Positions 1 to 30,668 of a stretch of DNA of 43,350 bases are shown here, piece after piece. Position numbers and translations under genes: made by a program. The stretch comes from a virus (lineage: Duplodnaviria; Heunggongvirae; Uroviricota; Caudoviricetes). The stretch lies in IMG/VR virus record IMGVR_UViG_2703718812_000010; one strand, 5' to 3'. Every line of letters begins with the position of its first letter. Within the stretch, counting starts at the first letter, position 1. Below the pieces are notes generated by a model. The model did no database searches. It was given only the letters and a program-made list of their open reading frames with translations, and was not told the DNA's origin.

Positions 1-142
1 AACAAACCTGAATCATGCCGCAATGAGCACGCTTCTTGGTGAGAGGATTATGGACCGCATGACCATGAACGGTGGTCGGTGGGTGACGTTTAACTGGGAT
101 AGCTGGCGTCCAAATGTCAGCAATCAGAGGGTTGTAAAGTAA
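1..142 (+). CDS. 3' end of an unidentified gene (partial, runs off window start)
   Basis: Open frame from window start to TAA at 140-142, read directly from sequence; no recognisable motif. Confidence 0.25.
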   Translation, partial: TNLNHAAMSTLLGERIMDRMTMNGGRWVTFNWDSWRPNVSNQRVVK

Positions 143-145
143 TTT

Positions 146-880
146 TTGTTGGAGGACGTTTTAATGGAAACTGTATTTGACGCACTGAAAGCACTGAAAA
201 AAGCCTCTTCACAGGTAGTGGCATCGCGCCTTGGAATCAGCCGCGAAGATGCTGTCAACGAACTGTGGAAACTGAAGCGCCGTGGTGAAGCGGATAACAA
301 GGGTTCGATGTGGTGGCTGATTCAGGCTGGTGAAAGTGAACCAGTGTCACCGGTACCGAAAGTGACAGCGCAAATGCTGACTGAGGCGATTGAACATCAT
401 GGCCCACAAACGGCGGATGAGCTGGCACTGATGTTCGGGATTACCTCCCGCCGGGCGAATTCATCACTGGCCATGGCAATCAGCAAAGGGCGTCTGATTC
501 GCGTGAATCAGGGCGGTAAATTTCGGTACTGCATACCGGGCGCTGATTTACCGGCAGAGCCGAAAGCCGCATCCATAGCGGAAACGGATGGTAAAGCCTT
601 TCCTCAGCCAGCAGGTGTTGCGTTACCAGTCGGGGAAGCGGAAACACAGGAAGAAATAAAAACGGAAAGTGTGGCGGTCACAGTGCAGTCACAGCCGTCG
701 TTCACCAGAAAGCATCCGGATGGTCTGATTTTACCATCGCTGCATGTGGCTAACCGCGAGCTGCGCCGGGCAAAAGGTCAGGTTCAGAAGTGGGAGCGAG
801 TCTGCGCCGCGCTGCGGGAGCTGAACAAGTGCCGGGATATTCTCCGGGATATTACCGCCACCAGAGAACAGCAGCGGTGA
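146..880 (+). CDS. hypothetical prophage protein, 244 aa
   Basis: Long ORF in ORF track; no motif recognised; start may be an internal Met. Context: cluster of small prophage-type genes. Confidence 0.45.
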
Positions 881-912
881 GTGGGTGGAAGACGTGGTGC
901 CGGGCGGAAATC

Positions 913-1194
913 ATGATACTCCGGCAGTGTGCGGGAACGAGGAAGGTAAAAAGCGTTGGCGCACTTATCGGACGAACTGAAGCGGCAGTGAGAACGAAGG
1001 CACGGGAGCTGGGCATCAGCATGATGTTACGTGGTGATTTTCACCCGTCGGCAAAATATTCTCAGCGTGATATTGAGCTGGCGCGGCAACTGCATCAGAG
1101 AGGCATGCAAAGAAGGGAAATTGCCAGAAAATTAGGCATGCCGCTGCGCATAGTGAATAACTACGTTTATTTCGACAGGAGGGTGTCTGCGTGA
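913..1194 (+). CDS. hypothetical HTH-repeat protein (start moved to internal ATG of ORF 790..1194)
   Basis: ORF 790..1194 overlaps the previous gene; internal ATG at 913 gives a 93 aa product with repeated motifs of the form (I/V)A/G..LG.S and RREIARKLGM resembling helix-turn-helix units. Confidence 0.35.
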   Translation: MILRQCAGTRKVKSVGALIGRTEAAVRTKARELGISMMLRGDFHPSAKYSQRDIELARQLHQRGMQRREIARKLGMPLRIVNNYVYFDRRVSA

Positions 1195-1418
1195 AAATCC
1201 TGTATCAGGATTACGGCCCGGTGGGGCAGGTGGTTATCAGCAGTACTGTAATGGAGTTTCGGAAGCATAACCGTGTGGTGGATGCTGTGCTGTTAACCTG
1301 TCCGGGGATATCGGCGAGTCGTGCAGGTGTGTTTATTATGAAGACTAAATTATATGGCAGTAAGGCGTGGATAAAGAAGGCGTATCGTGTAGCGTTGCAG
1401 GAGGTTAACAGTGAGTAA
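1191..1418 (+). CDS. hypothetical protein, 75 aa
   Basis: ORF overlapping stop of the upstream gene by 4 nt (translational coupling pattern). Confidence 0.35.
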   Translation: MKILYQDYGPVGQVVISSTVMEFRKHNRVVDAVLLTCPGISASRAGVFIMKTKLYGSKAWIKKAYRVALQEVNSE

Positions 1419-1722
1419 AATTAAAGAAATGCCGGTAGTTCGTGACGGATATGGCTACTGGACACATCCTGAATATGAAAAATTCTGTGATGGTCGGGAA
1501 TATATTTCAACGGAAGAGTTTAACGCCTGGATGGAGGAAAATAATCTTCAATACGTCCTCTGCTTCAGAGATGAAGGATGTGCTGACCTTGATGCGTGTG
1601 ATGCTGATATTTCTGCATGGGAACCGGAACGACCAGAGGGCGATGGCTGGTTTATTGGTTCCATTCATGATACGGAAGATGGCCCGGTTTGTGTCTGGTT
1701 GCGAAATAAGGCTGAAGCATAA
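1411..1722 (+). CDS. hypothetical prophage protein, 103 aa
   Basis: ORF in operon-like arrangement with flanking small genes; acidic, Cys-containing; no confident family assignment. Confidence 0.4.
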   Translation: MSKIKEMPVVRDGYGYWTHPEYEKFCDGREYISTEEFNAWMEENNLQYVLCFRDEGCADLDACDADISAWEPERPEGDGWFIGSIHDTEDGPVCVWLRNKAEA

Positions 1723-1849
1723 AGGCGATAAACCAACTAACAACTAAATACTGAAGATTTAAATCAGAAACGATTTTTATTAAATCCTTAACCGGAGGGA
1801 TTCCTGCACCCTCAGAACATCAGGAGGCCGCCCGAAAGGGCGGTAAGAA

Positions 1850-2068
1850 ATGAAACATTATTTAGAAAAAAATTACCCACGAAAGAGCAGAACAACAGAG
1901 TTTCTGTTTTTCATTCTGTTTATAGTGTTGATGATACCGATATCCCCGCTATTACTGGTCTGGATAATTGGAAGGACATTTGAACCAGTTATTGAGCTAT
2001 ATACCGATGTGACATGGGAATCATTCAGCGCACTGCACAATAAAATTAATCCGTATAAGGAAAACTGA
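1850..2068 (+). CDS. small membrane protein, 72 aa
   Basis: Hydrophobic stretch FLFFILFIVLMIPISPLLLVWIIG predicted as a TM helix; preceded by AGGAGG and a GNRA-loop hairpin. Confidence 0.4.
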   Translation: MKHYLEKNYPRKSRTTEFLFFILFIVLMIPISPLLLVWIIGRTFEPVIELYTDVTWESFSALHNKINPYKEN

Positions 2069-2069
2069 T

Positions 2070-2627
2070 ATGAGCACTATTACCAGAGAACGCGCGGAGA
2101 TTAAATCATACATCACAGGCTTCCTGAGCGACTCGGCGCACGATAACAAGTCTTCAGACAGCCTGCTGGCTAATGTGTTTCGTATCGCGCTGGCATCACT
2201 GGAAGCAGAGCCGATAGCAATGGTAGTGCCTGATGAAATGGATTTGCTTACCTGCCATCTCGACGGTGTAACTAAAACATATGCTGATGGCTGGAACGCC
2301 TGCCGCGTCGCCATGCTTCAGGCCGGAAACTTTCGGGAAAATAAGAATTCGTCAACCAACAATTTTCGGGAAATCTCGGAAACGTCAACCAGATCTCCGA
2401 TAACTCTGGATGGCTGGATAAGCTGTACTGAGCGAATGCCTGAAAAGAGCCAGAACGTGCTTATTTCGATGAATATCGATAGCGAGGCTGGGCCATTAAT
2501 ATATTCCGCACGCTATCTCGGAGGCACGTTCCGGCGCGGAGGTATAGCAGTTAGTCCGGGTAATGATCTTAGGCAAGCAACCCACTGGATGTCGCTACCA
2601 GAACCGCCGCAGGAGGTGAATCAATGA
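2070..2627 (+). CDS. hypothetical prophage protein, 185 aa (C-terminal WISCTERMPE region reminiscent of DUF551-type prophage proteins)
   Basis: ORF starts 1 nt after the previous stop; family resemblance is from memory only and was not searched. Confidence 0.45.
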   Translation: MSTITRERAEIKSYITGFLSDSAHDNKSSDSLLANVFRIALASLEAEPIAMVVPDEMDLLTCHLDGVTKTYADGWNACRVAMLQAGNFRENKNSSTNNFREISETSTRSPITLDGWISCTERMPEKSQNVLISMNIDSEAGPLIYSARYLGGTFRRGGIAVSPGNDLRQATHWMSLPEPPQEVNQ

Positions 2628-2917
2628 CCTGGCCTGAAGCATTCACAACGGTAGGAATTGCGATGGCGGTGGCGCTGGTGGTGTATTCGATTTGCCGCTG
2701 GGGATAAAAACGGTTTGCGGGAAAAGGATAGTTAAGTAGAATTGCAGCGGGTGCTTGAGGCTATCTGCCTCGGGCATGAACACCAACGGCAGATAGAGAA
2801 AAGCCCCAGTTAACATTACGCGTCCTGCAAGACGCTTAACATTAATCTGAGGCTCAATCCATGCTGAACACATGTAGGTTAGCCTCTTACGTGCCGAAAG
2901 GCAAGGAGAAGCAGGCT

Positions 2918-3073
2918 ATGAAGCAGCAAAAGGCGATGTTAATCGCCCTGATCGTCATCTGTTTAACCGTCATAGTGACGGCACTGGTAACGAGGAAAGA
3001 CCTCTGCGAGGTGCGAATCCGAACCGGTCAGACGGAGGTCGCTGTCTTCGTAGACTACGAATCTGAGAAGTAA
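2918..3073 (+). CDS. hokD: Hok/Gef family type I toxin (HokD/RelF-like), 51 aa
   Basis: Translation MKQQKAMLIALIVICLTVIVTALVTRKDLCEVRIRTGQTEVAVFVDYESEK has the Hok architecture: one TM helix followed by the conserved RK.LCE.R....EVA.F..YE periplasmic tail. AGGAGA sits 8 nt upstream of the ATG at 2918. The ORF-track start at 2861 is an in-frame upstream extension. Confidence 0.75.
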   Translation: MKQQKAMLIALIVICLTVIVTALVTRKDLCEVRIRTGQTEVAVFVDYESEK

Positions 3074-3080
3074 GAGACCA

Positions 3081-3103
3081 GGCGGGGGAGTAATCTCCCG
3101 CCA
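3081..3103 (+). other. 3' stem-loop of the hok transcript (GGCGGGGGA / TCTCCCGCC)
   Basis: Imperfect 8-9 bp inverted repeat immediately after the hok stop; no T-tract follows, so more likely an mRNA-stabilising end structure than an intrinsic terminator. Confidence 0.35.
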
Positions 3104-3192
3104 CCTCTGATGTGTCAGGCATCCTCAACGCACCCGCGCTTTACCATACTGAAAATGCTGTTTGAATGTTCATCTCTGAAAGAGGACTATGA

Positions 3193-3537
3193 ATGAAAAA
3201 GGTATTGATTGCAGCACTTATTTCCGGTGTGTCTTTTGGCGCTTTTGCACAGCAGGGTGGTTTCCAGGGGCCAGAAGCAGAGCGTTCAACAGTAGCGCAG
3301 GCAAAAGAACTGAAGGATGATGCATGGGTTATCCTTGAAGGGAGCATCGTTAAAAAAGTGGGTGATGAACGTTATGAGTTTCGTGACAATAGCGGGACAA
3401 TTGTCACGGATATTGATGACAGCGTATGGGCCGGGCAGAATGTTTCTCCGAAAGACAAAGTAAGAATTGAGGGTGAAATTGATAAAGACCTGAGCAGTGT
3501 TGAAGTTGATGTAAAGGCACTGAAATTATTAAAGTAA
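3193..3537 (+). CDS. YgiW/YdeI-family periplasmic OB-fold (BOF) protein, 114 aa
   Basis: N-terminal signal peptide MKKVLIAALISGVSFGAFA; remaining sequence resembles the BOF stress-protein family. Confidence 0.65.
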   Translation: MKKVLIAALISGVSFGAFAQQGGFQGPEAERSTVAQAKELKDDAWVILEGSIVKKVGDERYEFRDNSGTIVTDIDDSVWAGQNVSPKDKVRIEGEIDKDLSSVEVDVKALKLLK

Positions 3538-3546
3538 CCGCCCCTG

Positions 3547-3573
3547 CTTGTTAAGCCCGTCTTACTGACGGGT
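3547..3573 (+). terminator. intrinsic terminator after the YgiW-like gene
   Basis: Stem CCCGTC (3547-3552) / GACGGG (3558-3563) followed by TTTTCTGTTT. Confidence 0.55.
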
Positions 3574-3658
3574 TTTCTGTTTGTACATTCCGGCGTATTG
3601 CCTTACAATTCGCGCAGTCAGCCTGAACAACTGACACCTGCTGTCACCGGAGAATCCG

Positions 3659-3862
3659 ATGACACAACACATAAAATCCCACAATTCTGAAGCCGACCCG
3701 GAAATTAAGCAGGGGAGGCGTTTTCGTGCGCCTCAGTATGGCTGGTTTCACTATCTGTTCTGTACGATCGATGAGGCAGATATGTGTAACCAGGTGAATC
3801 ATTTGATACCGACAAGGGTTTTAGTGAAAGGAGGTGAAATCACCTGTAAGATGCTGAAATAA
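3659..3862 (+). CDS. hypothetical protein, 67 aa; ends 10 bp before the prophage left terminus
   Basis: ORF only; could be an intact small gene or the remnant of a gene disrupted by the insertion. Confidence 0.3.
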   Translation: MTQHIKSHNSEADPEIKQGRRFRAPQYGWFHYLFCTIDEADMCNQVNHLIPTRVLVKGGEITCKMLK

Positions 3863-11858: not shown

Positions 11859-12410
11859 ATGATGATTTTACAACCCATGGGGCGAAAAGGTCAGGCACCT
11901 GCTCATGTCCGTGCGTGGACACCTGAAGAAGATGCGCTGCTGATTGCGCTTTATCCATCCACCCCGGTTAAGGATATTGCTGTCAGGGTAAAAAGAAGTT
12001 TCTGGGGTGTACATAACCGGATTGTTTTATTACGCGGTACTTACCCGGAGTTGCTCAAATGCAAACGTCCAAGATTTAAACATGATGAAGATAAATTTAT
12101 CCGAAAAAATGCCAGAACGATGACCGGTAAGCAAATAGGAGAATATCTGGGGCGAGACCGGGATTCTGTCCACAATCGGGCGCGATATATTGGCGTAAGC
12201 ATGAAAAAATACGGAGAATTGCTGCCCTTCACCCGTATACCTGACGATGATGTTCATCTTATTCGTGAATTACGGGATGCTGAATCACCACGACGTCTTA
12301 CCTTCCGGGAAATAGGCGAGAAATTTGAATTATCCGAGAGTACGGTGAATTTTATTTATCACCATCGCCGGACTGCCGAGGACGCTGTATTACGGGAGTT
12401 AACGCCATGA
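11859..12410 (+). CDS. putative DNA-binding protein with three tandem HTH-like repeats, 183 aa
   Basis: Three roughly 40 aa repeats (..VKDIAVRVKRSFWGVHNRI.. / ..TGKQIGEYLGRDRDSVHNRARYIG.. / ..LTFREIGEKFELSESTVNFIYHHRR..). Confidence 0.45.
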   Translation: MMILQPMGRKGQAPAHVRAWTPEEDALLIALYPSTPVKDIAVRVKRSFWGVHNRIVLLRGTYPELLKCKRPRFKHDEDKFIRKNARTMTGKQIGEYLGRDRDSVHNRARYIGVSMKKYGELLPFTRIPDDDVHLIRELRDAESPRRLTFREIGEKFELSESTVNFIYHHRRTAEDAVLRELTP

Positions 12411-21645: not shown

Positions 21646-21724
21646 GTCAGTGGCGGGGGTCGAACCCGCATACATGATCCACCCGGAGGCAGGCACCGAC
21701 TTTACCAGTTAAGCGTACACTGAC
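21646..21724 (-). other. tRNA-like structured element (probable tRNA remnant)
   Basis: On the minus strand: 7 bp acceptor-like stem (GTCAGTG / CACTGAC), D-arm-like hairpin with GG loop, T-arm GCGGG-TTCGACC-CCCGC abutting the 3' acceptor strand, total 79 nt; no anticodon stem could be formed and there is no CCA. Confidence 0.25.
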
Positions 21725-21764
21725 CGCCTGCTTATTTTATATTCATATTTTATACGGAGGCAAT

Positions 21765-25856: not shown

Positions 25857-26102
25857 ATGAAAACCATCTTTATCAAACCCGCGCCGGGACGCCTGATTCG
25901 TGATCCCGACACAATGCGCCCGCTGGCACAGGAGGGGGAGGAAAAGCCCTTTACGCCGTTCTGGTGTCGGCGTCTTGATGACGGCGATGTCATTCAGGCT
26001 GAAAAAGCCGCTGAAGAGGCTCCGGCTGTATCTGCGGATGCAACGACTGCGACAGAAAAACCGGTCGCCCAACCGGCATCCGATAAGGAGAAACCGCAAT
26101 GA
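25857..26102 (+). CDS. small tail-region protein (Mu gp38 position)
   Basis: 81 aa ORF immediately upstream of the sheath gene. Confidence 0.45.
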   Translation: MKTIFIKPAPGRLIRDPDTMRPLAQEGEEKPFTPFWCRRLDDGDVIQAEKAAEEAPAVSADATTATEKPVAQPASDKEKPQ

Positions 26103-27601
26103 TTAATTTTGACGGGATCGGTAATGACCGCCGTATACCGCTGATTGAGGTTGAGTTTAATAACTCCATGGCTGTCACCGGCACTCCGGCACAGCGTCAG
26201 TGTGTGCTGCTGTTTGGTCAGGCGAGAATGAAAGAGAATGCCGTGGACGGTGCCGGTGTTCTGGATGTTCCGGTCAGGATCACCCGTGCGTCTCAGGCAA
26301 CAGAACTCTGGGGGCGCGGTTCCATGATTGCCCTGATGGTGGCGGAATTTATCGCCATCAATCCTGATGCTGAACTGTATGCCATTGCTCAGGGGAACGG
26401 CACCGGACAGGCAACGGCTGCGGCCATGAATCTGACCGGAACGGTCACCCGTGACGGGATTGTTTATGCCTGCGTGGGGGGGCGGCGTTATACACTCCCG
26501 GCACCAAAAGGTAAGAAAGGCAAAGAACTGACCGACGAGCTGGCCGCGCTGATCAATGCCGATCCTGACGCGCCCTTCACGGCCTCCTCTGGTGCAGGAA
26601 GTGGTGATAATGGCGCAGGTCTGAAAGGGTCTCTGGGGATCACCGCCCGCTTTACCGGTGAATGCTCCGTTCATGATGTGCGCCTGAACTATCACGACGG
26701 GGAAGCAACCCCGGAAGGAATACAGGTCGCTATAGCCTATCCGAAACAAAAAGCGGCTAACCCGGATATCACCCGAAGCGTGGCGGGGATGGGCGATCGC
26801 CAGTACAACTATGTCGTCATGCCCTATAAGGATGATGCAAACCTGAAAATCATCAGTGATGAGCTTCTGAAACGCTGGGGACCGGCCAAAATGTCTGACG
26901 GCGTGCTGTGGCTGGCACATACCGGCACGTTTGGTGAGGTGCAGGCATTCGGGGCAAAACGCAATGATTTTCTGGCGACCTGCACATCCATTCCCAAAGC
27001 CCCTGAACCGGATTACCTCTGGGCAGCGGCGGTCTGTGCCACCTGTGCACCCTCTCTGGGAGCAGATCCTGCGCGTCCGCTTCAGACGCTGGCGCTTCCG
27101 TCACGCATGGCCCCGGCTCCGGCCGATCGTCTGACGCGTGAAGAGCGTAACAGTCTGCTGTGGGGAGGGATTGCCACGGTCAGTGTGGCTGCCGGTGATG
27201 TGGTTCAGATCGAACGTCAGGTGACCATGTATCGCCAGAACGTGTACGGCGAAAGTGATCCCAGCTATCTGGATGTGGAAACCATCTACACCCTCTCCTG
27301 GCTGCGTTATTCCCTGCGTACTTTTATCACACAACGTTTTCCGCGCCATAAACTGGCTGATGACGGGACGCCCGTTCGTGCCGGTCAGAATATCGTGACG
27401 CCGGAGATCATGAAGCTTCAGTTAATTTCGCTGGGTGAAGAGTGGGTGGAACTCGGGCTGGTCGAAAATCTGGACACCTTTAAAAAGAATCTGCTTGTGG
27501 AGCGTAATGCGTCAGATCGAAACCGTCTTGACGTGTTATGCACGCCGGATCTGGTTAACCAGTTCCGCTTCCTGGCAGCACAGATCCGTTTCATTTTGTG
27601 A
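26099..27601 (+). CDS. contractile tail sheath protein (Mu L-like)
   Basis: 500 aa ORF followed by the tube gene; size and order match Mu L. Confidence 0.8.
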   Translation: MINFDGIGNDRRIPLIEVEFNNSMAVTGTPAQRQCVLLFGQARMKENAVDGAGVLDVPVRITRASQATELWGRGSMIALMVAEFIAINPDAELYAIAQGNGTGQATAAAMNLTGTVTRDGIVYACVGGRRYTLPAPKGKKGKELTDELAALINADPDAPFTASSGAGSGDNGAGLKGSLGITARFTGECSVHDVRLNYHDGEATPEGIQVAIAYPKQKAANPDITRSVAGMGDRQYNYVVMPYKDDANLKIISDELLKRWGPAKMSDGVLWLAHTGTFGEVQAFGAKRNDFLATCTSIPKAPEPDYLWAAAVCATCAPSLGADPARPLQTLALPSRMAPAPADRLTREERNSLLWGGIATVSVAAGDVVQIERQVTMYRQNVYGESDPSYLDVETIYTLSWLRYSLRTFITQRFPRHKLADDGTPVRAGQNIVTPEIMKLQLISLGEEWVELGLVENLDTFKKNLLVERNASDRNRLDVLCTPDLVNQFRFLAAQIRFIL

Positions 27602-27609
27602 GGTAAGGC

Positions 27610-27975
27610 ATGAGCGGAAAACAGTATCAGGGTACGGCCACTATCCGTGTGAACGGTCAGGAATACGAGACGCTTGAGGGGGCTACATTTTCTCCGTCTG
27701 GTTTTGAACGTGAAGTGGTGAAAGGCGCGAAAGTCTATGGTTACCGCCAGAAACCACGTGAAGCGACGCTGGACTGCAAATTTCCGGCAGGCGGAGAAGG
27801 TTCACCAGCCGCCGATGAAATCAACAACTGGACTGCGGTCACTATCGAGTTTGTGGCGGATACCGGCGAAGTCCACATGATGACGAAGGCCTGGAGCAGT
27901 GAACCGGCCTCGCTTGACGGTGGCGGGGAGATCTCCGTGAAGTTCGCCAGCGCCTCCAGTACCCGTGTTCAGTGA
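27610..27975 (+). CDS. tail tube protein (Mu M-like)
   Basis: 121 aa ORF directly after the sheath gene. Confidence 0.75.
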   Translation: MSGKQYQGTATIRVNGQEYETLEGATFSPSGFEREVVKGAKVYGYRQKPREATLDCKFPAGGEGSPAADEINNWTAVTIEFVADTGEVHMMTKAWSSEPASLDGGGEISVKFASASSTRVQ

Positions 27976-28466
27976 TCAGGAAAAATAAAATGACCACACG
28001 TAAGAAAAAAACGGCAGTTTCCGAGGCAGCCGTGATGGAGGCAATCCGGGAAGCACTTGAGGGGGCTGATCCACGCACTGCCGGGCTGACAGAGCAACTG
28101 GCAAAGGGATATGTGGATCTGCTTGATGGTCTGCCGTTTGGTGAGACCCGTGAATATCGTGTCACGTTCCGGGAACTGACAGCGAAAGACAGTATTGACG
28201 CAGAAGCAGAAGCCGAGCGCGTGGTGGAGACAAACAATGGCCCGATGCTGATAGCGTCTCCGTCGTTACGCGGTGTTGCACTGCTGCGCCGTCAGATTGC
28301 CGCAGTGGGAGACATTGAAGGTCCGTTGTCACCCCGTCAGATTGGACAGTTAAGCGAGCGCGATCTCTCCCGCCTGATGGCAGCGGTCAGCCTGCTGGAT
28401 ACCGCGCTTGCCGGAAAGCTGGCAGCTGACCGGGGGCGATCAGGCGCAGTGTCGGGATCAGATTGA
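27972..28466 (+). CDS. tail assembly chaperone (Mu gp41 position)
   Basis: 164 aa acidic protein between the tube and tape-measure genes. Confidence 0.6.
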   Translation: MIRKNKMTTRKKKTAVSEAAVMEAIREALEGADPRTAGLTEQLAKGYVDLLDGLPFGETREYRVTFRELTAKDSIDAEAEAERVVETNNGPMLIASPSLRGVALLRRQIAAVGDIEGPLSPRQIGQLSERDLSRLMAAVSLLDTALAGKLAADRGRSGAVSGSD

Positions 28467-28590
28467 AGAAGCGGCAATTATCCTGGGGATGGTGACAAAA
28501 AGCGGTCCGGAATGGGCGCTTAACCTCCCCCTGTCGCAACTTTACCGGCACTGCCGACAGACAGAAAAAATCATCAGAACGAAGCAGTAA
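28408..28590 (+). CDS. possible frameshift extension of the tail assembly chaperone
   Basis: 60 aa ORF in the +1 frame overlapping the last about 20 codons of the chaperone and ending 2 nt before the tape-measure start. Confidence 0.3.
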   Translation: MPESWQLTGGDQAQCRDQIEEAAIILGMVTKSGPEWALNLPLSQLYRHCRQTEKIIRTKQ

Positions 28591-28592
28591 GT

Positions 28593-30668
28593 ATGGCCCG
28601 AAATCTCAGAGCATCTCTGATAGTTGATTTGCTCGGCAATATCTCAGCCAAATCCCGCCAGTGGTCACAGGAGCTGGGGGCATTCTCACGCTCCGGCCAG
28701 GCGGGGCTGGGTGGCCTGGGAAATGCTGCCCGCCGTGCCGGGCAGGAAACAGATGTACTCGGAAGCAGGATGCAGCGCACGCTGGCCGGGGTGCGGGGCA
28801 GTATCCGCCATGTCACTTCTGATTTTGACCGTCTTCAGGACAGTATTACCGGCACCATCGGGCGGATCAGCAATCTTTACGGAATGCTGGCCGGTGGTGC
28901 TGCTGTATATGGCTTTAACCGGGGATTTATTCGCCCGGCAGCGGAGATGGAAACCTATATGATTCGCCTGAACTCCCTTTACAAAGGGGATCGGGCGAAA
29001 ACTGATGATGTCCGCAGGTGGGCAATACAGAATGCGAAGGAAACCACCTGGGGGCTGGCTGGCGTCATGCAGGAATATACGTCCAGTCTGGGCTTTGGTA
29101 TGAGTGACAGGGAGGCCCGAAATTTTGTCACCATGCTTCAGGATCAGGGTGCCGTGGGCGGCTGGTCACTGTCCGATGCACAGGGGGCATCCCTGCAACT
29201 GAAACAGATGTATGCAAGAGGCAGTATTCAGGCGGCGGATGCAAATATTCTTGCCACCTACGGCATTAATGCCTACCGCGTGCTGGCTGATCGTCTGGGT
29301 GTGGACCAGAAAGTGGTCAGAAAACTTGGTGAAAAAGGGCTGCTTGGGCCGGACAGTATTCGCCTGTTATTTCAGACGCTGGCGGAACAGGCCAGGGGAG
29401 CACAAAAGGACGCAATGAATTCCTGGAGTGGCCTGACGGCCATGATGGGTGACGTCTGGGATCAGTTTGCCCGGGATGTGATGGACAGTGGGCCATTTGA
29501 AAAACTGAAGGGTAATCTCAGGGGATTTCTTTCATGGGTTGACAGTGCCAAATCTGATGGCAGTTACCATTCCCTGGCGGAAAGCACGGCATCAGCCATG
29601 AACCAGGGCTTTGAGTATGCCCGTGATGCAGTGACAGGGTTTTATCAGGCGATCAGAAAGGTACGCGACACGCTTCAGGCTCTGCGGGATGCGGGCTATG
29701 GTGATGCGCTGGATCGCATTGGTCAGGGGGCACAGACCGCCGCGAAATACCTGCTGTACATGTATCTCGCCACCCGTGCCCTGAAAATGGCGCGGGCTGT
29801 CGGAACGGGGATTATACGTCCGGGTGCTGCATTGCTGGGATACGGATTATCAGCGGCGGCCTTCCTGACTTCACCTTTCCGGCGCTCTCCTCCGGCCGGA
29901 ACACCACCAGGCACATCTCAGGGACGAGGGCAACGTTTTATAAACTTTCTTACCGGGGTAAATCCGGCAGCCGTTCAGCCAGTACTTGTAACAAACTGGC
30001 CCACAGGAGGACTGTCCGGCACCGGCGCGACCGATACTTCCTCAGGCGGACGTCAGGGGCGGGGCCGCAGGAAACGCGGACCGGGGCGCGGAAGACCGGT
30101 CACGCCTCCCCTGCCACCGTCCCCAGTGCCACCGTCTCCCTCTTCTGGTGGGGCAGGGTTCTGGGGGCGCATGATGGGGCGCGCCGGTGGGTTACTTTCG
30201 TCTGTCGGTAGCCGCATGGGGCTGGGGCGTTTCTCCGGCTTTTTCCGCAGTGCCGGTGGACTGGCCGGCCGGCTGGGTGGCGGTGCCCTGTGGGCTGGCG
30301 CGATGGCAGCCCCGGTTCTGCTGGATGGCAGCGCCAGTGCCACAGACAAGGGAGAAGCGGTCGGCTCTCTTGCAGGCAGTATTGCCGGTGGTGCGCTGGG
30401 GGCGGCAGCCGGACCTGTGGGGATTGCCATTGGTTCTACGGTGGGCAGCTATCTCGGTAACTATCTGGGGGGATGGCTGACTGAAGCCTGGCAGAAATTA
30501 CGGGGCAGTGATGATGAAAGCAGTGGACAGGCGGTACAAAAAGCCTCTGCCCGTGTGGAGCTGGTTGCCCCGGAAGGGTGGCAGGCTCGCAGTATTGATA
30601 TTGATGACACGTCCGGTCACGGACTGGATGTGAATGTCTGGAACGGAGGGAATTATGGCCTCTGGTGA
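28593..30668 (+). CDS. tail tape measure protein
   Basis: 691 aa; helical N-terminal two-thirds and Gly/Pro/Ala-rich C-terminal region; position after the chaperone. Confidence 0.8.
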   Translation: MARNLRASLIVDLLGNISAKSRQWSQELGAFSRSGQAGLGGLGNAARRAGQETDVLGSRMQRTLAGVRGSIRHVTSDFDRLQDSITGTIGRISNLYGMLAGGAAVYGFNRGFIRPAAEMETYMIRLNSLYKGDRAKTDDVRRWAIQNAKETTWGLAGVMQEYTSSLGFGMSDREARNFVTMLQDQGAVGGWSLSDAQGASLQLKQMYARGSIQAADANILATYGINAYRVLADRLGVDQKVVRKLGEKGLLGPDSIRLLFQTLAEQARGAQKDAMNSWSGLTAMMGDVWDQFARDVMDSGPFEKLKGNLRGFLSWVDSAKSDGSYHSLAESTASAMNQGFEYARDAVTGFYQAIRKVRDTLQALRDAGYGDALDRIGQGAQTAAKYLLYMYLATRALKMARAVGTGIIRPGAALLGYGLSAAAFLTSPFRRSPPAGTPPGTSQGRGQRFINFLTGVNPAAVQPVLVTNWPTGGLSGTGATDTSSGGRQGRGRRKRGPGRGRPVTPPLPPSPVPPSPSSGGAGFWGRMMGRAGGLLSSVGSRMGLGRFSGFFRSAGGLAGRLGGGALWAGAMAAPVLLDGSASATDKGEAVGSLAGSIAGGALGAAAGPVGIAIGSTVGSYLGNYLGGWLTEAWQKLRGSDDESSGQAVQKASARVELVAPEGWQARSIDIDDTSGHGLDVNVWNGGNYGLW

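Follow-up and report, generated by a model that had tools for sequence, protein, structure and literature searches.

The gene for the tail assembly chaperone in a Mu-like prophage, contained in the IMG/VR record IMGVR_UViG_2703718812_000010 (Caudoviricetes; 43,350 nucleotides, the whole stretch being called here the window), very probably undergoes a programmed -2 ribosomal frameshift of the type described in phage Mu. The slip site would be the nonamer CGG GGG CGA at positions 28431-28439 of the plus strand, shared with Mu in the same phase, and the shift would join the gp41-family chaperone encoded in frame 0 (27990-28466, plus strand, 158 amino acids, stop codon TGA at 28464-28466) to a C-terminal extension encoded in the -2/+1 frame (28438-28590, plus strand, 50 codons, DQAQCRDQIEEAAIILGMVTKSGPEWALNLPLSQLYRHCRQTEKIIRTKQ, followed by TAA), which was assigned by its homology to the extension of Mu FS-gp41. 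A programmed frameshift joining the chaperone to a +1-frame extension had been suggested by a previous sequence-only reading of this DNA, and conservation, coding selection and the identity with Mu support that proposal.

The region was read through and all its frames were translated. The 60-amino acid open reading frame (ORF) of the +1 frame from which that reading started extends from TTG 28408 to TAA 28588-28590, shares 59 nucleotides (around 20 codons) with the 3' end of the chaperone gene and is separated by two nucleotides (GT) from the ATG of the tape measure gene at 28593. The coordinates given there for the ORFs, the overlap, the two-nucleotide gap and the G-rich run all hold on re-reading and translation, and the extension ends at the start of the tape measure gene, as had been noticed. 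The +1 frame is really open from 28378 (to 28590), in such a way that the overlap with the chaperone gene amounts to 89 nucleotides. The G-rich run GACCGGGGGCGA, located at 28428-28439, is read in frame 0 as GAC CGG GGG CGA and contains the shifty octamer GG GGG CGA (28432-28439), of which GGG and CGA are frame-0 codons, with eight codons between CGA and the stop. With GGG occupying the P site, the A-site codon here is CGA, a rare one for Arg; in the ORFs of the window CGA makes up 5.1% of the Arg codons and CGG 17%. The nonamer CGGGGGCGA is found once in the window against 0.54 copies expected, so the motif by itself is not significant. The in-frame codon pair GGG CGA was found five times in the long plus-strand ORFs of the window (0.65 expected from codon frequencies), the other pairs being at 11880, 12150, 19513 and 30730. 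Two of these pairs carry the GGGGCGA core, both in the ORF 11859-12410 (ATG GGG CGA at 11877 and CTG GGG CGA at 12147); a slip there could only abort translation, and the +1 frames close after 14-19 codons.

For phage Mu, a -2 shift on GG GGG CGA was reportedly verified experimentally by Xu, Hendrix and Duda in 2004. The GenBank record AF083977 of Mu holds two coding sequences at the chaperone, Mu_41 ('tail assembly chaperone') and the joined Mu_56, the latter with the note 'verified -2 translational frameshift in PMID 15469818; tail assembly chaperone frameshift product'. Mu is listed as a case of -2 frameshifting, in which one amino acid is added relative to a +1 shift (Atkins et al. 2016, PMC5009743), and Lin et al. 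2012 (PMC3458567) speak of 'tandem -2 slippage on GG GGG CGA', the pairing of the A-site tRNA-Arg, whose anticodon is ICG, being better in the -2 frame than in the -1 frame. It was the sole natural programmed -2 case known in 2012, with an efficiency of around 2.2% (Firth et al. 2012, PMC3498833), and the Mu 10-mer alone produced 14% shifting in a purified translation system (2025 bioRxiv preprint 10.1101/2025.10.02.679949).

The comparison with Mu, which the sequence-only reading had named as a check, was decisive. When the conceptual two-frame fusion was used in tblastn, Mu, D108, SfMu and Yersinia Mu-like phages matched in two pieces across the frame change (residues 33-195, around 49% identity, E 1e-34). 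In a direct comparison with the Mu group over the last 75 nucleotides of the chaperone gene, CGG GGG CGA was identical and in phase in the window, Mu, D108, SfMu, Pasteurella phage Pmp9 and E. coli prophages, despite the proteins of the window being only 36-48% identical to those of Mu, D108, SfMu and Pmp9. This identifies the G-rich run, already singled out by that reading, as the slip site. In alignment A1 the +1-frame homology to Mu begins at the first codon past the slip site, at 28438 (window DQAQCRDQIEEAAIILGMVTKSGPEWALNLPLSQLYRHCRQ..., Mu EWLRCRNDIEKAATAIGVILKSGPEWALSLPLSRFFRHCQQ...), in such a way that the TTG at 28408 and the 60-amino acid ORF counted from it are an artefact of ORF calling. 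The extension matches PHROG 12783 with an E of 1.3e-36, and its peptide is kept from E. coli to Pasteurellaceae. Most examples in tailed phages are -1, as had been remarked, but the case calls for no special explanation, being a textbook -2 example.

The window thus shares with Mu gp41/FS-gp41 (Mup41 plus '41.5') the Gp41_Mu family, the order sheath-tube-chaperone-tape measure, the identical in-phase nonamer, a homologous extension of around 50 amino acids in the same alternative frame that ends just before the tape measure start, and a site without a significant downstream hairpin. The differences are of detail, as the window proteins are only around 47-49% identical to those of Mu and the N-terminus of the chaperone is 14 amino acids longer and Lys-rich. 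The distance from CGA to the frame-0 stop is eight codons in the window and six in Mu, the +1 frame is open for 89 and 38 nucleotides upstream of the frame-0 stop, respectively, and the gap to the tape measure start is 2 nucleotides versus 14. Unlike that of Mu, the fusion of the window lacks a RefSeq annotation and is predicted from its sequence.

The searches made with alignment A1 in genome and viral contig collections gave 85 more loci, which together with the annotated records amount to 96 loci and 64 distinct sequences. Among the 64 distinct loci, CGG GGG CGA was found in 38 (window clade, Mu clade, Pasteurellaceae and others), GAG GGG CGA in 16 (Photorhabdus and Xenorhabdus, with a TAG directly after it), AAG GGG CGA in eight (seven of Citrobacter type plus L092, the latter with TAG directly after), and CGG GGG CGT and the lambda-type G GGA AAG in one each (L075 and L087, respectively). 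The GGGGCGA core is present in 62 of them, and its phase is constant wherever it occurs. All the 63 core-bearing loci have a G immediately 5' of the GGG codon, the A-site codon is CGA in 62 of these 63, and Arg is encoded by CGG in all the 39 loci of the first class (the 38 with CGA plus L075). The overlapping frame is conserved, being open beyond the frame-0 stop in every distinct locus, over 118-136 nucleotides in 63 and 217 in L087, and in 63 its end lies at the tape measure start or close to it. The -1 frame, by comparison, runs past the frame-0 stop for a variable length, 5-146 nucleotides among the 64 loci and 5-38 in close clades.

Three variants deserve mention. L075 (IMGVR_UViG_3300005254_000022) is the only locus with CGT in the A site (CGG GGG CGT CTG). 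In Citrobacter braakii and related viral contigs (L011, L046-L054), whose chaperones are around 86-89% identical to that of the window in the core, the site is AAG GGG CGA, in such a way that the G-run is one base shorter and the +1 extension is still conserved. In a distant member of the gp41 family (L087, IMGVR_UViG_3300021176_000005) the chaperone ends in CAG GGA AAG TAA, the lambda-type heptamer G GGA AAG is in phase, and the -1 frame is open for 140 nucleotides past the stop. Since L087 carries this heptamer, -1 and -2 solutions seem to coexist within the gp41 chaperone family.

Coding selection was studied in 20 distinct sequences of the window clade, which show 74-99% nucleotide identity in the extension. 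Variable sites fall at codon positions 1, 2 and 3 in numbers of 10, 7 and 29 in frame 0 over 28317-28430, and of 13, 6 and 29 in the +1 frame over 28467-28587. As judged from these substitutions, the selected reading frame is changed from 0 to +1 at the slip site. Among the 11 relatives with 88-99% nucleotide identity, synonymous changes outnumber nonsynonymous ones in eight (for instance, 9 to 3), and codon changes of both types are equal, 7 to 7, in L007 and L039, whereas in the seven relatives with 74-75% identity the ratio is about even (16:14 to 12:16). The feature as a whole is far beyond chance because the phase of the motif is kept, the +1 frame is open in every distinct locus and the periodicity of the variable sites switches. 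That the +1 ORF is a chance open frame in the spacer between the chaperone and tape measure genes, with no recoding at all, has next to no probability, since the motif being no rarer than chance in 43 kb and the 126 nucleotides left unannotated by RefSeq are outweighed by the third-position periodicity in the +1 phase, the synonymous changes that equal or exceed the nonsynonymous ones in 9 of the 11 relatives with 88-99% nucleotide identity, the peptide kept from E. coli to Pasteurellaceae and the frame open throughout the 64 loci.

The direction of the shift in the window is most likely -2 rather than +1. It is favoured because the nine-base site is identical to the Mu site reported as a verified -2 site, because the G 5' of GGG and the CGG codon for Arg are kept in the 63 and 39 loci mentioned above, and because both -2 forms of the Mu fusion have been deposited, while the +1 form is found under no curated accession. 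For tRNA-Gly to slip +1, from GGG to GGC, no particular base is required 5' of GGG, whereas a -2 slip needs NGG there. The conserved 5' G, or CGG, would be the nucleotide-level constraint expected for -2 re-pairing, to which it lends modest support, and the retention of CGA in spite of its low usage in the window fits a specific role of the A-site tRNA. An exact-sequence look-up showed that the two deposited Mu fusions differ at the junction, ...ERGR-EWL in GenBank UIW09302.1 and ...ERGG-EWL in Swiss-Prot P0DJY4; one of these forms is what tandem slippage would give, and the other what slippage in the P site only would give. In proteins P0003 and P0008, from Logan assemblies, the Mu-type chaperone appears as a single 187-amino acid ORF (...ERG-EWL...) with one G fewer, and these may be homopolymer assembly errors or natural fusion-only mutants.

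The gp41 family could also lack one fixed mechanism, with tandem -2 slippage on CGG GGG CGA and a +1 shift, or a mixture of +1 and -2, on the AAG and GAG variants, which we consider unlikely. In such a case, the five G followed by CGA in the window might yield a mixture of -2, +1 and abortive -1 events and not one fusion. If true, the gp41 family would offer a natural allelic series in which to see what determines whether slippage is -2 or +1.

A plain +1 shift, which is the direction proposed in the sequence-only reading, would imply that, with the slowly decoded CGA awaiting its tRNA in the A site, the peptidyl-tRNA-Gly moves from GGG to GGC, giving a 199-amino acid fusion (...DRG-DQAQ...) without the Arg or Gly of the junction, and we regard it as improbable. 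Such a slip enters the same frame, the rarity of CGA (5.1% of Arg codons) is that of the hungry codons at +1 sites, so that GGG_C then CGA formally fits, the clades with AAG or GAG before GGG CGA would re-pair imperfectly (AGG) in the P site after a -2 movement, and in vitro reporters are blind to the difference between -2 and +1. Against it stand the annotation and citation of the identical Mu site as a verified -2 site (PMC5009743, PMC3458567, PMC3498833), the missing curated accession for a +1 fusion of Mu, and the G or GG 5' of GGG that is kept at synonymous positions in 63 of 63 loci and would be unneeded for +1. Sites of the +1 type in tail and capsid genes of Listeria phages and SPP1 are cited in PMC3498833. 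The site of the window is like these and like E. coli prfB in the use of the same +1 frame beside a slowly decoded A-site codon, and the Photorhabdus relatives resemble prfB-type sites further, with a stop codon directly after the site. It is unlike them in that they move one base forward and need no repeat 5' of the P-site codon, whereas here the 5' G or GG is conserved.

In the -2 mechanism that we prefer, most ribosomes would stay in frame over 27990-28466 and produce the 158-amino acid gp41-family chaperone. A small fraction, around 2% in vivo in the case of Mu, would pause while tRNA-Gly occupies the P site on GGG 28434-28436 and tRNA-Arg(ICG) the A site on the rare CGA 28437-28439, and would then move two bases back, onto GGG 28432-28434 and GGC 28435-28437. 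Translation would restart at GAT 28438 and continue for 50 codons more to TAA 28588-28590, the predicted product being a minor 200-amino acid fusion (...AADRGR-DQAQCRDQIEE...). The fused product anticipated by the sequence-only reading is therefore predicted here too, with a length of 200 amino acids from the ATG instead of around 210. Arg is placed at the junction (...AADRGR-DQAQ..., 200 amino acids) because the description of tandem slippage was followed. The forms can be told apart by their predicted junctions, which would be the Lys-C peptide LAADRGRDQAQCRDQIEEAAIILGMVTK for tandem -2 slippage, ...LAADRGDQAQCR... with no extra residue for the +1 form, and ...DRGGDQ... for a P-site-only -2 shift or a two-G insertion in the transcript. 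By analogy with lambda gpG/gpGT, both proteins would coat the tape measure protein through their common N-terminal domain, and the extension of the rare fusion, also in analogy to lambda, would recruit the tail tube protein so that tube polymerisation starts; neither form of the chaperone would remain in the virion. The geometry, the identity of the site with that of Mu, the conservation of the site and its phase, the coding selection and the missing start codon are seen directly in this DNA and its relatives; the occurrence of the shift in this prophage, the -2 direction, the efficiency and what the extension does are inferred.

Several points weigh against this mechanism. The -2 and +1 shifts are indistinguishable from the sequence, as they lead to the same frame and differ by one junction residue, and the junction residue of Mu itself differs between GenBank and Swiss-Prot. 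The -2 assignment for Mu is taken here from the GenBank note and secondary sources, and a search among around 15 billion proteins found no fusion of the window in any of its three possible forms. The tube-recruiting role of the extension would come from the lambda analogy only. Finally, a single-sequence AlphaFold model of the fusion has low confidence (predicted local distance difference test, pLDDT, of 51 overall), with residues 110-200, which include the extension, modelled as helices at a pLDDT of around 75. No solved structure related by sequence was found, the best match, with an E of 0.25, being irrelevant.

With respect to known systems, in lambda an abundant short chaperone and a rare extended form are made from gpG/gpGT at around 30:1, the presumed roles being the binding of the tape measure by the shared domain and of the tube protein by the extension (PMC5009743). 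The window resembles lambda in the position of the gene between the major tail protein and the tape measure and in the logic of a short and an extended chaperone; it differs in the shift, which is -1 on G GGA AAG in lambda and would be -2 on a different slippery sequence here, and its chaperone shows no match to any lambda-type family. The likeness to gpE/gpE+E' of P2, which Pfam groups in PF10109, includes the contractile tail, the gene position, the two-product logic and the fact that the window chaperone just reaches the PF10109 threshold, whereas P2 uses a -1 shift on another slip sequence and has an unrelated extension.

The +1 ORF as a separate small gene of around 33-60 amino acids, started at TTG 28408 or ATG 28489 and never fused to the chaperone, is very improbable. 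It is true that some RefSeq records annotate it in this way, that the extension is carried as a 48-amino acid 'hypothetical protein' in D108, where it is annotated as 'gp41.5', and in E. coli strain M1, that PHROG 12783 treats it as a family of its own, and that in some lineages an ATG or TTG is found 11 nucleotides past the core, with the G-run before it. However, the 'start' of D108 (L002) is a CTG, and in the +1 ORFs of Mu type not a single ATG, GTG or TTG is present. The +1 frame of the Mu clade opens just 10 nucleotides before the core, and being startless and that short upstream, it can therefore be entered only by a shift within the around 35 nucleotides that contain the motif. The TTG of the window has no Shine-Dalgarno sequence before it and is missing in L039 and Mu, the codon at the +11 position of the window is GCG, and the +1-frame homology to Mu is already present from the codon that follows the site, upstream of the only ATG that the window has in this ORF. 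A conserved start codon for the extension was not found among the relatives. Independent initiation of the +1 ORF was rejected on the basis of these startless Mu-type loci and the unconserved TTG.

Slippage of the RNA polymerase on the run of five G, with one G lost or two gained, would place the extension in frame with no ribosomal slip, and is scarcely credible here. The homopolymer coincides exactly with the junction, an insertion of two G would produce ...RGG-DQ..., matching the Mu form of Swiss-Prot, and contigs with one G fewer exist in the Logan assemblies, possibly as assembly errors. Bacterial transcriptional realignment needs longer runs, typically of 7-9 or more A or T, for which five G are short. 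The strict conservation of CGA and of the phase is explained by a ribosomal A-site effect and not by the polymerase, and the Mu 10-mer works in a reporter system where it is treated as ribosomal.

No stimulatory structure is claimed for the window, where the 52 nucleotides after CGA fold no better than shuffled sequences (z = -0.04; +0.09 to -1.59 in close relatives and +0.34 in Mu), the 81-nucleotide segment 28440-28520 gave z = -0.78, and Rfam at the gathering threshold showed no match in the slip-site region. A structureless site in the window fits the activity of the Mu 10-mer alone. A strong hairpin was detected only in the Photorhabdus/Xenorhabdus clade, with 13 base pairs, starting six nucleotides after CGA (-21.3 kcal/mol, z = -3.58). 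In these prophages (L013, L016-L024, L081-L092) the cassette GAG (or AAG) GGG CGA TAG is followed by the hairpin GCAGTGCGTTCGG..., in such a way that it is far more elaborate than that of Mu or the window. They have four G only, so -2 re-pairing in the P site would land on AGG. The hairpin arms are nearly invariant, with no double compensatory changes, and covariation is not claimed.

No in-phase X XXY YYZ heptamer leading to a conserved -1 extension was found in 28378-28466. The nearest one, C GGA AAG at 28412-28418, is in phase, 14 nucleotides upstream of the slip site and one base from G GGA AAG; a -1 slip on it would meet TGA 28427 after four codons, with no extended product. A programmed -1 product was also rejected, having in mind that the -1 frame opens at 28430, closes after 21 codons at 28493-28495 and is not conserved.

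The tail module around the site is of the Mu contractile type, with the order sheath, tube, gp41-family chaperone and tape measure, all with Pfam support. The sheath gene (26099-27601) shows three sheath domains. It is followed by the tail tube gene (27610-27975, plus strand, 121 amino acids, Pfam PF10618 Tail_tube, E 3.3e-31), directly upstream of the chaperone and named 'phage tail tube protein' by RefSeq in identical E. coli DNA. The chaperone matches Pfam PF23746 Gp41_Mu (E 1.3e-31, profile positions 1-107 of 107) and PHROG 508, tail assembly chaperone (E 1.2e-46), and scores 25.1 bits against PF10109 Phage_TAC_7 ('E, or 41 or 14'), barely above the cut-off of 25. Its start is more likely ATG 27990 than the in-frame GTG 27972, as suggested by the sequence upstream, where a Shine-Dalgarno-like AGGA (27978-27981, plus strand) was read eight nucleotides before ATG 27990. 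In Mu a ribosome binding site is annotated at the equivalent position, and RefSeq WP_000213225.1 has the same coordinates as the window chaperone, with the start at ATG 27990. The exact 158-amino acid sequence was found in more than 1000 contigs. The tape measure protein gene (28593-30668, plus strand, 691 amino acids, Pfam PF20155 TMP_3, E 1.9e-18) is labelled 'tape measure protein' in RefSeq as well.

This type of frameshift is already known, described and verified for Mu, so the novelty is limited to its missing annotation in this lineage, and nothing new is added on frameshifting itself beyond the modest comparative support of the 64-locus site table for -2 re-pairing. RefSeq, through its PGAP annotation, holds the 158-amino acid protein only, and 28467-28592 (126 nucleotides) is empty, also in the identical E. 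coli records L006-L010. The predicted 200-amino acid fusion of a widespread Mu-like prophage of Shiga-toxin-producing E. coli (STEC), including O157, is thus missing from RefSeq, and its importance is mainly one of annotation. PHROG 12783, of 'unknown function', is the frameshift extension; recognising it as the second half of FS-gp41 provides a function for this family and removes the apparent 126-nucleotide 'intergenic' gap.

Regarding its distribution, the 1.2 kb around the site are 100% identical in many STEC prophages, including those of O157:H7, and 228 of 5426 complete genomes carry them. Taken as a whole, the window is a Mu-like prophage that shares 97-98% identity with that of O157:H7 FRIK2455 (mom, com, gam and Mu transposase). 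That it was the FRIK2455 prophage itself, inserted in dcuC, was rejected, since blast showed 97-98% identity only and different flanks. At the DNA level, the phage searches, near and distant, gave only two Shiga toxin (Stx) phage records with an inserted Mu-like phage, and Mu appeared at the protein level only. ARAGORN detected no tRNA anywhere in the window. In a closely related O157:H7 prophage (L096) RefSeq annotates a 'tRNA-OTHER' at 21658-21738 (around 21.6-21.7 kb of the window, minus strand), flanked by the genes for head morphogenesis and for virion morphogenesis. The left flank of the window (1-3784) is lambdoid prophage DNA (DUF1627 and DUF551 genes, among others) and is 100% identical to several STEC genomes; therefore, the Mu-like element lies within another prophage, an arrangement also present in the Stx-phage records LC727881 and LC727895. 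This flank contains a full-length sok antitoxin RNA at 2749-2923 of the plus strand (Rfam RF01794, 113.5 bits).

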